Assembly: GCA_963826525.1 (NCBI GenBank)
Contig: CAWGXH010000004.1
Location: forward strand, 800,001 to 864,000
Length of the DNA stretch: 64,000 nucleotides
DNA from: an uncultured Methanomicrobiaceae archaeon
GTDB lineage: Archaea > Halobacteriota > Methanomicrobia > Methanomicrobiales > Methanoculleaceae
Reading direction: 5' to 3'
The notes below the pieces were generated by a model. That model worked only from the letters and a program-made list of their open reading frames with translations, made no database searches and was not told where the DNA came from. This document shows, piece by piece, positions 48,533 through 52,822 of the stretch (positions are counted from its first letter, which is position 1; each line of letters begins with the position of its first letter). The translations under genes were made by a program, and so were the position numbers.

Positions 48533-48607
48533 TAGCGAGGGATGGATTTGAACCATCGATCTACGGGTTATGAGCCCGTCGGGATTTCCTGACTACCCCA
48601 CCTCGCT
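48533..48607 (-). tRNA. tRNA-Met(CAU), initiator type
   Basis: AGCGAGG...ACGGG-CTCATAA-CCCGT...GGTTCAAATCC...CCTCGCTA; A1-U72 pair and three G-C pairs in the anticodon stem; CCA not encoded. Confidence 0.96.
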
Positions 48608-48656: not shown

Positions 48657-48731
48657 TAGCGAGGGATGGATTTGAACCATCGATCTACGGGTTATGAGCC
48701 CGTCGGGATTTCCTGACTACCCCACCTCGCT
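48657..48731 (-). tRNA. tRNA-Met(CAU), initiator type, second identical copy
   Basis: Same 75-nt sequence as 48533-48607; TATA-like TATATAA near 48773-48779. Confidence 0.96.
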
Positions 48732-48857: not shown

Positions 48858-49277
48858 ATGGAGGAGAAGAGAACCGGGGACGATGACCTTGCGCGTCTGC
48901 GGGAGCAGCGGCTGCGCCAGATTCAGGAGGCTGCACTCCGGAAGCGGGAAGGAACCGTTATCGACCTCACTGATGTGAACTTTGCAGAGACGATCCGGCA
49001 GCACGCCTACGTCGTCGTTGATTTCTGGGCGGAGTGGTGCGGGCCATGTCGGATGGTATCCCCGACGGTCGAAGAGCTTGCGGGGGAGTATGCGGGCAGA
49101 GTGACCTTCGGCAAGTGTGACGTCGATGAGAACCGGTGGGCGGGAAGCAGTTTCGGGATATCGGCGATACCGACGCTTCTCTTCTTCGCAAACGGCCAGG
49201 TCGTCGACCGAATTGTCGGGGTGCAGTCAAAGGCCGTCATCCAGTCGCGGATGGATCGCGCGTTCTCGTCGCTCTGA
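48858..49277 (+). CDS. trxA: Thioredoxin
   Basis: 'DFWAEWCGPC', 'IPT'. Confidence 0.95.
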   Translation: MEEKRTGDDDLARLREQRLRQIQEAALRKREGTVIDLTDVNFAETIRQHAYVVVDFWAEWCGPCRMVSPTVEELAGEYAGRVTFGKCDVDENRWAGSSFGISAIPTLLFFANGQVVDRIVGVQSKAVIQSRMDRAFSSL

Positions 49278-49315
49278 TAGGTGAAGAACTGTCCCATCCT
49301 CGTTTAAAAATAGAT

Positions 49316-50894
49316 TTATGTAGTTTCGGCAGGACCCGGGGCTCCCGCAAGACTCCGATCGATCAGCCAGCCTGCCGCCAGCGCGACGATCGAGAGCGGC
49401 AGTGCAATGACCAGAGGGTCGATGACCGGCCACGGCATCGGAAGAAGGCTCTCCGCACCGAAGAGGAACTCCGAGAGGCCGAGCACTGCCGACTCTTTGA
49501 CGTGGACGAAGGCTGTCCAGAGGAACCAGACGACCGCACCCGTCACCACGCTGTACTTCGCGCCCCGGAGCGACGGCCGGTCGGAGAAGAGCGCGAGCAG
49601 CGTACGCCGGGAGGAATGCGGCGGCGCCGAGGCCCATGAACATCGCCGTCGCCCGGGCGATGATGCTGCCGGGCATGACGTAGGCGAGCAGGACGGAGAC
49701 GACGATCATCGCGACGGTAGCGATCTGGATCGCCCGCATCGACGGCTTTTCGCTGCGGGTATGGCGCCAGATATCGAATCCGAGACTCGTTCCCATGGTA
49801 TGGAAGAGCGAGCTTAACGTGGACATGGCGGCGGCGAGAAGTGCCAGCATGAAGACGATGATGAAGAGATCGGGCATCGCTGCGTTGATGTACAGGGGGA
49901 TGATCGTGTCGATGTTTCCGGCCGTCGCCGCCTGCATCGCGATCTCGCCTTGTGTCTGGTAGAAGTAGACGTTGGTCAGCGGCCCGACGGTGAAGGCAAC
50001 CCCGGTCATCATCAGGATGAACGGCCCGCCGACGAGCACCGCGCGGTTGATGGATCTGCTGTCCTTGACGGTCATGAACCTGACCACGAGCTGCGGCTGG
50101 GCGAGGACGCCTATCCCGACGCCGAGGATGAGTGTCGTAACCAGGGTATACCAGAGGGACGATCCGAGTTCGGGCATGGATGCCCATCCGGTCATCCCGG
50201 CGGCCGCTAGCCCGGCGGGCACCTCGCTTGAGAGGGCGTCGAGGGCCGCATGAGCGTTCGTAATGCCGCCGAGGAGCAGGTAGGTGAGCACGAGCAGCGC
50301 TGTCATGCCGACGAGCATGATCGCGCCCTGGAGGGCATCGGTATACATGACGGCGATCAGGCCGCCGACCACGACGTAGAGGGCGACGACGGCGGCGAAT
50401 GCGAGGAGGGCGGTGTCGTAGGGTATCTGCAGGGTGCTGGTGAGGAACTGCGCTCCCCCGATCAGGATGGCGGCTGTATACAGCGGCATGCCGACGACGA
50501 TCAGAAAGCCGGTGAACGTCTGCATGAAGGGTGAGTTGTAGCACTTCCCCATCAGGTCCGGGAAGGTGACCGCATTCAGGCGCTGCCCGATCCGTCGTGT
50601 TCTCTTTCCGAAGACCACGAAGGCGAGGAGGACACCGACGCCGATGCAGAGGACGGTCAGCCACATAAGCCCCATCCCGAGTTGCGCTGCTGCTCCGCCG
50701 AAGCCGATGATTGCCGAGGTGGAGATGAAGGTAGCGCCGTAGGAGAGTGCAAGGACAACCGGGTGGATCTTTCTCCCGGCGACCATGTAGTCGTCGTGAC
50801 CCTGGGTCTTTCTGTACCCGAGGTATCCAAGGCCGATGACCATCAGGAGATAGACGATGGTCACCAGAGCAAACGTAAGCGTATCAACTGCCAT
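49316..50894 (-). CDS. Sodium:solute symporter (SSS) family protein; indel near 49600
   Basis: 'DYMVAGR', 'SYGATFISTSAIIGFGG', 'VMYTDALQG', 'QPQLVVRFM', 'AAAMST'. Confidence 0.93.
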
Positions 50895-51009
50895 TACTAT
50901 CATCAAGCCCTGTATTCCAGTTCAGAATGCCATACACGATACACGCAAGCGTAAGGCCGATAGCAAGCACGTATGCAAACCCGATAACGGGATCAGTAAT
51001 TCCAAGCAT
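50884..51009 (-). CDS. Symporter small accessory membrane protein (41 aa; absent from ORF track)
   Basis: Hand translation MLGITDPVIGFAYVLAIGLTLACIVYGILNWNTGLDDSNGS; SD GGGAGG; overlaps the SSS start. Confidence 0.85.
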   Translation of the reverse strand: MLGITDPVIGFAYVLAIGLTLACIVYGILNWNTGLDDSNGS

Positions 51010-51072
51010 AATAGTCCTCCCGGTAACAGGTTACCGGATCAATCCACGGGAACACAGCGTCGTGCCGGTTCC

Positions 51073-51147
51073 CTATCTAAAGCTAAAGAAAAAGGCGAAT
51101 GCGTTCTGCACGTCGGTGCAACCGGGGTTCACGCTGAAATTAGCCAT
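51073..51147 (-). promoter_or_regulatory. Putative Phe-rich leader peptide (uORF) MANFSVNPGCTDVQNAFAFFFSFR of an attenuator
   Basis: ATG 51147, TAG 51073; 6 Phe codons, 5 in the last 8; TATA TTTAAATA at 51189-51182; hairpins downstream. Confidence 0.6.
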
Positions 51148-51442
51148 CGGTGAATGTCCCGCCTATCATAGGGCTTCCGGATATTTAAATCGGCATGATC
51201 GGTGACCGGAATTTCGACCGTCTCCGATGGAGAGTCCCGACGCTGCCGTCGGAACCGTATCCTTCCTCCTCCTCATGGGATAGGCCTTGTGAAGGCCGGT
51301 GTCGTTACGGTGGCCGGGCACATCCTCCTCCCGGTCTCCTGCCGGGGAAAGGTTCGCAAAAGGAGGCGCCCGCTGCTGCCTAGCAGTCGGCCAAAAAGAC
51401 GCTCGGGGGTATATCTTCCCCATGATAACTGGCTGTAGCAGG

Positions 51443-52822
51443 TCAGTAGTGCCGGCGCATGAACTCGCGGATCGATGCCGACTCGATCCACCCGGAGTCC
51501 AGTCTGCTGATGATGCTGTGAATGGTGTATGCCTGTTCAATGATCTTCGTCGAAGCAGGGTTCTCATCCATGCATGCAAGCCCCACGATCACCTGGAGGG
51601 GGTTTCTGATATGGTCGCCGAGAATGGCAAACTGTTCGATATTCTTATCGATCTGGATATATGCCTCGCGCCTCTCCTCCTCGAGCTCGGAGAGTTTCAG
51701 AGCGGATCCAAGGTCGTTTGCAAGCGTTGCAAGAAGACTCGTCTCCTCTGCGGTGAAGCGGCCGCTATCGGTGCGGACGACAGCGATGACACCGACCGAT
51801 TCGCTCCCGGCAATCATGGGGATCGCCCGGATCTCCCCGACGGAATCAAGCCCTATGCAGAGGGCTTCGCCCTCTGCCAGATGCTCCGATACGATGGTGC
51901 CCGTTCGGTAGGCGGATTCGATGAAGCGGCGCAGAGGACGGTTATGTGAAATTCCGGCGTAGCGATCGTCGGAGATGGAGAAGAGGGATATCCTCTCCTC
52001 CTTCCCGAGCCAGATCGATACTATCAGTCCCTCCCGAATGCTCCCGAGCCTGTGGCAGGCCTTTCGAAGGAGGCTGCGCTCGTCCCGCTCCCGCACGAGG
52101 ATGCCCGATAACTCGCTTGCGCCCCGGAGCAGCAGCTCGGCCTCCCTCCGTTCGGTCATATCGACGACGGTGCAGATGGCGGTCGTCGGGGAGAGCGCTC
52201 CGGCAGAGAGCACTGCGTACCTGCATGCTCCCCCGCGGGTGACGAGCGTTCCTTCGTAGTTCACGACAGTGTCCTCTTTCTCGATCTGATACATGAACTG
52301 CCGGAGTTCCTCGTTTTTCTGCCAGATCTTTCGCAGGTTTGCTCCCACCAGGTCGTCGGCGCCGTAGCCGAGCATCTCGGCGCATCGCCGGTTCACCTCG
52401 GTGATCCGGAGGCTCTCTCTGTCGACGAGGAAGATCCCTGCCTGCGAATTGCCGAAGATCCCGTGGTACTTCTTCTCCTGCTCGCGGAGGCGGTCGAGGA
52501 GGTACGCGACGATCCCCGAGATGCCCACCATGGCGACGAACTGAACCGTCCCTTCTGTCAGTGCGACCGTCTCGGGGTAGGTGATCAGATAGACGAGGCC
52601 GATGTAGAGTGTGGCGAGCCCGATGGCAAGGTGGAACCCTCGCTGCCGGTACCGGAAGATGGCGAGGAGGATCGGGATATAGAAGAGGTTGGGGAAGATG
52701 CCGTTGATGCCGTGCGACAGGCCGTATGCGGTTATGGTGAGCGATACGGCTGAGGTGATCAGAATCGCGGCAAGCCATCGATCCCGGAGGTATCCGGCGG
52801 CAGGGATGGGGGGGCACCACAT
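51443..52822 (-). CDS. Membrane PAS/GAF sensor with a HisKA-like helix but no ATPase domain
   Basis: About 4 TM segments, PAS ('IFGNSQAGIF..VN...MLGY'), GAF, 'ILGDHIRNPLQVI', stop about 45 aa later. Confidence 0.8.
   Translation of the reverse strand: MWCPPIPAAGYLRDRWLAAILITSAVSLTITAYGLSHGINGIFPNLFYIPILLAIFRYRQRGFHLAIGLATLYIGLVYLITYPETVALTEGTVQFVAMVGISGIVAYLLDRLREQEKKYHGIFGNSQAGIFLVDRESLRITEVNRRCAEMLGYGADDLVGANLRKIWQKNEELRQFMYQIEKEDTVVNYEGTLVTRGGACRYAVLSAGALSPTTAICTVVDMTERREAELLLRGASELSGILVRERDERSLLRKACHRLGSIREGLIVSIWLGKEERISLFSISDDRYAGISHNRPLRRFIESAYRTGTIVSEHLAEGEALCIGLDSVGEIRAIPMIAGSESVGVIAVVRTDSGRFTAEETSLLATLANDLGSALKLSELEEERREAYIQIDKNIEQFAILGDHIRNPLQVIVGLACMDENPASTKIIEQAYTIHSIISRLDSGWIESASIREFMRRHY

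Follow-up and report, generated by a model that had tools for sequence, protein, structure and literature searches.

What can a short reading frame rich in phenylalanine (Phe) be doing in front of a transporter operon in an archaeon? The question is raised by a locus within a stretch of 64,000 nucleotides (nt), here called the window, at positions 800,001 to 864,000 of contig CAWGXH010000004.1 (GenBank assembly GCA_963826525.1), from an uncultured Methanomicrobiaceae archaeon of the order Methanomicrobiales. On its minus strand, a 24-codon upstream open reading frame (uORF) that ends in a cluster of Phe codons, with a hairpin at its stop codon, precedes the genes for a small accessory protein and a symporter of the sodium/solute symporter (SSS) superfamily. 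We think it likely, at a probability of about 0.65, that this leader is a cis-regulatory element in which the ribosome reads the charging of tRNA-Phe, and that it controls a probable importer of Phe or of an aromatic precursor. As far as sequence comparison can tell, the sensor is the best-supported part of this proposal; the stalling of the ribosome and the output step are what we infer beyond it.

An earlier note on this DNA had described the locus as a candidate ribosome-mediated attenuator with two hairpins, A and B, downstream of the uORF. On re-reading the minus strand we recovered all of its coordinates, the uORF and both hairpins, and the features are as follows.

51182 to 51189, minus strand: TATA box TTTAAATA of the leader promoter, with 42 nt from its first base to the ATG of the uORF.
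51073 to 51147, minus strand: leader uORF, MANFSVNPGCTDVQNAFAFFFSFR, 24 codons plus TAG, with the ATG at 51147 and the TAG at 51075-51073.
51079 to 51099, minus strand: Phe-codon cluster at codons 17-23 (TTC GCC TTT TTC TTT AGC TTT), the proposed sensing site.
51106 to 51121, minus strand: small hairpin within the uORF (UGCAC-CGAC-GUGCA), followed by GAAC, found in both the minimum-free-energy and the centroid structures.
51048 to 51073, minus strand: hairpin A (GGGAAC CGGC ... GCUG U GUUCCC), -14.3 kcal/mol, whose first pair is made by the G of TAG.
51020 to 51037, minus strand: hairpin B (DNA CCGGTAAC-CT-GTTACCGG, RNA CCGGUAAC CU GUUACCGG), which abuts the Shine-Dalgarno sequence.
51016 to 51021, minus strand: Shine-Dalgarno (SD) sequence GGGAGG of the accessory gene, read from the sequence.
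50884 to 51009, minus strand: symporter small accessory protein of 41 amino acids (NF045580, 58.2 bits against a cut-off of 35).
49227 to 50894, minus strand: sodium/solute symporter of the SSS superfamily, whose ATG at 50894 overlaps the end of the accessory gene.

How widely is this arrangement shared? All 46 orthologous loci that we collected from Methanomicrobiales (six families, 18 genera) have the leader, in the same order of promoter, uORF of 21-39 codons, hairpin at the stop codon, accessory gene and SSS symporter, and their uORFs close with clustered Phe codons and, except in locus L113 described below, one Arg or Ser codon before the stop. These loci comprise 30 from relatives, 12 from a phylum sample and four from genus g19. 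A protein search with the symporter found orthologues in 29 of 41 related genomes, giving 30 loci, and every one of these has the accessory gene, a Phe-cluster uORF and a GC-rich hairpin directly at the stop. Within the phylum sample of 401 genomes the symporter is present in 128, which added 12 more loci from the same taxonomic order, all with the leader. Named carriers include Methanoculleus, Methanogenium, Methanolinea, Methanoregula, Methanospirillum, Methanosphaerula, Methanocalculus and Ca. Methanofilum. In a check of named organisms, for which 30 of the 69 returned loci were inspected, the leader was seen in 26/26 Methanomicrobiales, and no Phe-rich uORF was seen at the 4/4 Methanotrichaceae loci inspected.

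An RNA covariance model of the stop-proximal region (R1) was then used as an order-wide probe. It matched 83 of 151 genomes, with a single match in 81 of the 83, and the window's genome has one match only; genomes G021 and G024 have two matches each and also two SSS copies each. By these searches the leader element is unique to the accessory/SSS operon. With filters off and at E <= 1, R1 found nothing in 40 orthologous upstream regions from three other families of the phylum (10 from family f14, 23 from f7 and seven from f24), and its sensitivity is limited in that it missed all 21 genomes of genus g19, though 4/4 of the g19 loci that were fetched carry the leader. Three of those four read MDVERTSNSCGILSTFHVFFFFFR-TAG with a different hairpin sequence, and the fourth, L113, ends FFFFYFN-TAA. 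A crude scan of the genome for further uORFs with a single abundant amino acid and a hairpin at the stop returned 198 candidates, mostly Arg-rich out-of-frame ORFs of a GC-rich genome; none was convincing besides the Phe leader, and the scan is an inadequate test. An exact-match look-up of five uORF peptides, including MANFSVNPGCTDVQNAFAFFFSFR, found none in a collection of 15 billion proteins, and these peptides have therefore never been predicted by any gene caller.

Is the uORF a coding sequence, or only a pyrimidine-rich tract that happens to be open? The tails of the uORFs, 37 distinct ones from 42 loci, carry a mean of 4.6 Phe in their last 10 codons (range 3-8) when read in frame; the two shifted frames give 0.9 and 1.0. 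Both Phe codons are used (95 TTT, 84 TTC), and a C that falls within a pyrimidine run occupies codon position 3 in 99 of 134 cases. Phe stands at codon -2 in 37/37 tails and at codon -4 in 35/37, and the last codon encodes Arg through AGA (20), AGG (9), CGA (2) or CGT (1), or Ser through AGT (5). The stop is TAG at 45 of the 46 loci and TAA in L113. Length tells the same story: the 23 distinct Methanoculleus-type uORFs have nine different lengths (63-117 nt), all of them multiples of 3 and with zero internal stops, in a test that is independent of ORF calling and that is anchored on a nucleotide motif at the ATG and on TAGGGAACC at the stop. The window's own uORF has Phe at codons 4, 17, 19, 20, 21 and 23 (6 of 24 codons), and in the long ORFs of its genome Phe makes up 3.3% of codons and TAG 19% of stops. 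The genome has a single tRNA-Phe (GAA), so that TTT is read by wobble, and TTT accounts for 53% of Phe codons in the leaders versus 27% in the genome's long ORFs.

These signals indicate that the uORF is under coding-frame constraint, and that it is probably translated. The central claim of the earlier note, a Phe-cluster uORF on the same transcript as the operon, is thus real, with frame and start position conserved in relatives. The same data remove the simplest explanation that the note had held against itself, a plain T-tract conserved regardless of frame: the tract is phased by codons, with C at the third position as above, and most Methanoculleus-type loci (genus g6) have no T-run >3 in the Phe tract at all.

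The hairpin at the stop codon leaves its own mark. An alignment by MAFFT alone puts the 3' arm of hairpin A out of register, so that no more than the five outer pairs are recovered, and because of this we used a covariance-model realignment, which is fitted to the structure and so leans towards hairpin A. In that alignment pairing covers 84.5% of cells, and sliding the 3' partner lowers this to 57.4% or less; both sides have changed in 7 of 10 pairs (33 cells), and the covariation score was reached by 0 of 500 shuffles. Compensated arms are also visible in the raw sequences (GGGAACC, GGGGACC, GGGAGACCG, GGGCUCCGG and GGACUACCGG, each with a matching 3' arm). The onset of the hairpin falls on the second or third base of the stop codon, or on the next base, in 46/46 loci, with free energies from -12.7 to -24.6 kcal/mol. 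The folding energy of the window's leader as a whole does not stand out (z = -1.0, with 34 of 200 shuffled sequences folding equally well), and therefore the structural evidence is the covariation and not the energy. On that evidence hairpin A, as first proposed from the window's sequence, is under RNA-structure constraint. In most loci (for example L008 and L036) a single-stranded motif of the UGUA type (G/C-UGUA-A/G) lies 1-3 nt after hairpin A; the window has the variant GUGGAUUGA at 51047-51038.

A second structured element, absent from the window, emerged from the relatives. In many lineages the 5' untranslated region (UTR) and start codon of the uORF are complementary to a segment just 5' of the accessory SD, forming a helix that we call P1 (strand pairs include GGUAAAUCC with GGAUUUACC, GGUAUUUUG with CAAAAUACC and UCCAAGGGAU with AUCCCUUGGA). 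Cognate pairing is far stronger than non-cognate pairing in genera g9, g16, g10, g18, g20, g21 and g11 (ranks 0-7 among 43-45), for instance -21.6 versus -8.9 kcal/mol, and in g16 the helix reaches about 20 bp and -21.6 kcal/mol. Carriers include loci L022, L023, L026, L027, L034, L037, L039 and L041, the 3' strand lying within about 30 nt before the accessory SD. Compensatory changes indicate that P1, in many lineages, is under RNA-structure constraint, and its pairing puts the uORF start region and the accessory SD and ribosome-binding site (RBS) on one RNA. In predicted folds P1 encloses the whole leader, which suggests that the uORF would be translated mainly before the 3' strand of P1 is transcribed. 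Hairpin B fared differently from hairpin A: it is present in the window as described, but it is lineage-specific, since the window's genus (g1) and genera g6, g8 and g12 carry it as a local hairpin at the place where many other lineages have P1, which is absent from the window's genus.

A further repeated structure is found inside the reading frame. An 18-nt unit, consisting of a UGCAC-N4-GUGCA hairpin plus GAAC, occurs in tandem in the uORFs of Methanoculleus, in up to four copies, in frame and with compensatory variants; L009 has 4.0 copies with a period of 18 (1225-1296), and the window has one. The unit might slow the ribosome or bind a protein.

Where would transcription and translation of the leader begin? 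A simple pattern search found a TATA-like element about 36-46 nt upstream of the uORF start in most relatives and no match in L018, L019 and L029. This spacing implies a predicted transcription start that leaves a 5' UTR of about 10 nt. The Methanospirillum loci L153, L179, L181, L150 and L155 have an apparent TTG start (GGTAAATTG) where M. lacunae and Methanosphaerula have ATG, and the accessory proteins of these five Methanospirillum loci are extended at the N-terminus (MFSVFGI...).

From these elements we propose the following mechanism. Transcription would start from a promoter about 40 nt upstream, giving a very short 5' UTR and a uORF of 21-39 codons that is translated with the ribosome as the sensor. 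Phe makes up most of the last 8-10 codons of the uORF; Arg or Ser comes next, and then a stop codon that forms part of the base of hairpin A. When charged tRNA-Phe is scarce, the ribosome would stall at the Phe codons with hairpin A intact ahead of it; when Phe is plentiful, it would reach the stop, melt the hairpin and depart. That hairpin A must melt for a ribosome at the stop follows, by inference, from the position of the stop in its base and from a standard ribosome footprint. The difference would be read out during or shortly after transcription and would set the expression of the symporter, which would be switched on by Phe shortage and would import Phe or an aromatic precursor. Both the direction of regulation and the substrate are argued from the analogy of bacterial leaders.

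Several points weigh against this proposal. All of our readings come from sequence comparison and folding models, and related genomes are non-independent samples. At codon -2 the Phe codon is TTT in 37/37 tails, and UUUAGRUAGGG is nearly invariant in nucleotides, so that conservation here is partly at the level of RNA or peptide and is not simply that of any Phe codon. At four of five Methanospirillum-type loci the conserved start position and its surroundings offer no ATG in frame, and translation would need TTG (L155 has an additional in-frame ATG five codons further in), and in Ca. Methanofilum the start would have to be GTG or TTG. As to the output, the accessibility of the accessory RBS, taken as the mean unpaired probability in constrained folding of 46 leaders with modelled ribosome positions, is flat: 0.48 in the free leader, 0.47 with the ribosome stalled at Phe -4, 0.48 at Phe -2 and 0.49 at the stop. 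Across the 46 loci we found no two conserved, mutually exclusive structures through which the position of the ribosome could act on the accessory RBS, and no conserved terminator, a T-run of at least 5 being present in the Phe tract in 27/46, downstream of hairpin A in 13/46 and in neither in 12/46. The flanking genes differ among the 14 named loci scanned, and none is of aromatic metabolism; they therefore give no hint of the substrate. Finally, in family f14 (L043, L044, L046, L050 and L051) the accessory/SSS operon lacks the leader uORF and is divergent from a gene for a TrmB-family regulator (Pfam PF01978 in L043, L046 and L050, E = 1e-18 to 2e-20). The TrmB family is best known for sugars; yet this neighbour neither supports nor excludes an aromatic substrate.

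What, then, could the output be? The earlier note had proposed that the 3' arm of hairpin A pairs alternatively with the SD, so that a ribosome at the stop closes the SD and a stalled one opens it. As a general mechanism this does not hold, since the complementarity is at the non-cognate level in 16 of 18 genera (cognate mean -6.25, non-cognate mean -6.55; genus-level mean rank fraction 0.58). The pairing is strong in the window's clade, L001-L005 (-9.2 to -13.0 kcal/mol), and in g8 (-10.5 to -10.9), and an anti-SD switch may operate there. For the window's leader itself, constrained folding gave the opposite of the predicted opening on stalling, with an accessibility of 0.28 when stalled versus 0.40 at the stop.

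Other candidate outputs were tried and rejected. Blocking the Phe tract leaves modelled accessibility unchanged, which disposes of the tract as an anti-SD for the accessory RBS. A conserved oligo-T intrinsic terminator was set aside on the 13/46 loci with a T-run of at least 5 downstream of hairpin A. Programmed frameshifting or readthrough at the stop was judged by eye only: no conserved slippery heptamer was seen, and the phase from the stop to the accessory ATG varies (spacing 59-107 nt, frame not constant).

The Phe tract is the sole U-rich element common to all leaders, and passages in two papers describe the archaeal termination factor aCPSF1/FttA as recognising U-tracts (PMC8716108; PMC11616081). 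Within the ribosome-read sensor, an output at the level of the transcript, by termination or processing (for example by aCPSF1/FttA at an exposed U-rich tract), has in our estimate a little under an even chance. Control of translation initiation, possibly lineage-specific, as with the predicted pairing between the SD and the 3' arm of hairpin A in L001-L005, is a possible but less probable output, and other routes such as mRNA stability make up the rest. Our lean towards an irreversible co-transcriptional termination or cleavage is conjectural, and comes from the equal openness of the RBS in the modelled states and from P1, which would confine uORF translation to nascent RNA.

Taken to its most specific form, the proposal would make this leader the first archaeal amino-acid leader-peptide attenuator, wired to the CPSF73-like aCPSF1/FttA rather than to bacterial machinery; we regard that version as doubtful. 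It would have a stalled ribosome hide the U-rich Phe tract while hairpin A is folded, so that polymerase continues into the symporter genes, and a ribosome that finishes the uORF expose the tract, so that the transcript is cut or terminated. P1 would then shut the uORF on the mature mRNA, and only the co-transcriptional pioneer round would be sensed.

Could the same conservation be produced by something other than a sensor of tRNA charging? The alternative that survives best, and that is still unlikely, is a nascent-peptide arrest sensor of the TnaC or SpeFL kind, in which a small molecule (free Phe or an aryl acid, for instance) would make the ending F-x-F-R/S-stop arrest the ribosome at or near the stop. 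A ribosome halted there would alter termination or RNA folding, and expression would rise with the ligand and not with starvation. The C-terminus is indeed conserved as peptide, since four codons, drawn from two codon boxes, are used for the Arg and Phe holds position -2 in 37/37 tails and -4 in 35/37. The hairpin-embedded TAG, used in 45/46 loci, would likewise fit a mechanism centred on termination, although membership in hairpin A accounts for the TAG and its adjoining bases as well. Known arrest peptides, however, use one or a few sensing residues with conservation further up the exit tunnel, whereas in these leaders the sequence and length N-terminal of the cluster diverge freely, and a count of 3-8 Phe among the last 10 codons is the hallmark of a sensor of tRNA charging.

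We consider it very unlikely that the leader is a structured RNA element, such as a riboswitch or a protein-binding leader, with a reading frame that is incidental or of secondary importance and a ligand or protein that acts through P1 and hairpin A (an Sm-like protein on the U-rich tract beside hairpin A would be an example). Covariation in hairpin A and P1, the nucleotide-level conservation of UUUAGRUAGGG and of the UGUA motif after hairpin A, and the closing of the whole leader by P1, as a riboswitch P1 does, would all suit such an element. On the other hand, the phased C/T alternation, the four Arg codons and the nine lengths in multiples of 3 are hard to obtain without translation, and the start codon lies at a fixed distance from the TATA box. 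The region from the start to the Phe tract has no sequence or fold conserved across families, which leaves little for a ligand pocket, and there is no match to an Rfam family.

Less credible again is a functional hydrophobic micropeptide, for instance a third small subunit of the transporter, with no regulatory role. It would account for the hydrophobic C-terminus and for the constant co-location and co-orientation with the accessory and SSS genes, but conservation is limited to about 8-14 residues at the C-terminus, fewer than a membrane span needs. The N-termini are unrelated between families, the length varies from 21 to 39 residues through expansion of the 18-nt repeat, and orthologous operons in three other families work without the uORF. 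A chance ORF near a promoter, or a plain oligo-T terminator of the upstream gene, could draw on the T5 run in the window's tract and on a leader folding energy that is not significant alone, but is contradicted by 46/46 conservation with frame signals, by the shortage of T-runs >3 in the tract at most g6 loci and by the TATA box between the upstream gene and the uORF, and can be dismissed.

How does the proposed Phe-tRNA sensor compare with systems already described? In bacteria, attenuation by leader peptides is a textbook mechanism, and it requires transcription and translation to be coupled. The closest parallel is pheL-pheA of Escherichia coli, for which the earlier note had quoted the PheL sequence correctly. 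Both have a short leader ORF with a C-terminal run of Phe broken by single residues (here FAFFFSFR-stop), and both have a G-rich segment right after the stop that could pair either with the last codons, which are pyrimidine-rich, or with a C-rich arm further downstream. Unlike pheL, the archaeal leader has no terminator of the hairpin-plus-U-run type, the motif after hairpin A being G/C-UGUA-like (GUGGAUUGA in the window), and the controlled genes encode a transporter and not Phe biosynthesis, in an archaeal host. To our knowledge, archaeal RNA polymerase does not use bacterial intrinsic terminators. The Rfam Phe_leader model RF01859 (gathering score 55 bits) had no match at E <= 10 in the window between 50700 and 51700 and none at E <= 1 in L001, L008, L022, L026 and L027, while the E. 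coli pheL control scored 132.3 bits. The element resembles the pheL attenuator in logic but lies outside that family.

Translational attenuation of ermC and cat offers a second comparison, with a leader ORF and hairpins between its stop and the next SD, and in the clade of the window that SD is complementary to the 3' arm of hairpin A (-13.0 kcal/mol). In the account of ermC given in part of one article, a leader ribosome that stalls remodels the hairpin masking the downstream SD (PMC10219788). In contrast to ermC, SD complementarity among the archaeal leaders is confined to L001-L005 and g8, and modelled SD accessibility is independent of ribosome position. With TnaC and the Rho-dependent attenuation of tna the leader shares a stop codon as the critical site and downstream genes that include a transporter, and, as in uORF-gated Rho termination, a factor-dependent terminator could sense ribosome cover next to the stop. 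In TnaC, free Trp is sensed by way of the nascent chain, and one Trp residue is the key one; the archaeal leader, unlike it, has many Phe codons. The leader is also like the mycobacterial polycysteine leaderless ORFs in its very short or absent 5' UTR, in opening an operon with a short ORF in which one amino acid abounds and in having no classical terminator as a defining feature. Those ORFs are described, in the portion of a preprint that bears on them, as Cys-responsive attenuators (bioRxiv 10.1101/834739); they differ from the present leader in being bacterial and in the amino acid.

The earlier note had also stated that no such Phe leader was known from archaea. Our full-text literature searches, which did not cover subscription-only literature, agree with it, having found no archaeal amino-acid-sensing leader peptide. 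In one article, the relevant part of which names no case, uORFs are said to act in archaea (PMC10219788). What is familiar here is the sensor; what is new is the domain of life and the architecture, with a stop inside a hairpin, a helix closing onto the next RBS and no terminator. The actuator is probably new as well.

What does the operon transport? The symporter matches TIGR00813 with E = 1.4e-46 over 394 residues, at 159.4 bits against a curated cut-off of 184, and scores far below the cut-offs of the PutP and PanF models. Its solved relatives are only distant ones (SGLT1, vSGLT, NIS and SMVT), and on these comparisons its membership is at the superfamily level only. Nothing was found on the symporter small accessory protein in the literature searched, from which subscription-only literature was again excluded. 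The window's genome has an orthologue of IorA, a protein of the aryl-acid route, which scores 838.7 bits where the cut-off is 650.9, and no Phe uORF was found upstream of iorA in this genome. The aryl-acid route is described for M. maripaludis in the part of the source that treats it (PMC3462420).

Outside the order, the operons show other features. The intergenic region shared by the f14 operon and the TrmB-family gene is AT-rich. Further orthologous and paralogous loci, L047, L049 and L052-L082 (f14 and f7), have paired palindromes in their upstream regions, for example CATGCTAAC ... CATGTTAAC, or GCTATAGCAT repeats, just after a TATA-like box, and these look like operator sites. Genomes of family f7 carry two to three tandem or dispersed symporter paralogues. 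In the window itself, a PAS-domain gene (51443-52822, minus strand) lies upstream of the leader, with about 250 nt of intergenic sequence (51190-51442) between it and the leader TATA box, and two tandem tRNA-Met (CAT) genes with identical Rfam scores (48533-48607 and 48657-48731, minus strand) lie downstream of the symporter gene.

In conclusion, the leader is the only functional clue to a widespread pair of symporter and accessory protein, and it points to Phe or an aromatic precursor as the probable substrate. A candidate present across a whole order makes it testable whether an archaeal ribosome can signal to the eukaryote-like archaeal polymerase or to a termination factor. If the proposed sensor operates as we suggest, the leader would also be a natural amino-acid-responsive control element for the engineering of methanogens.

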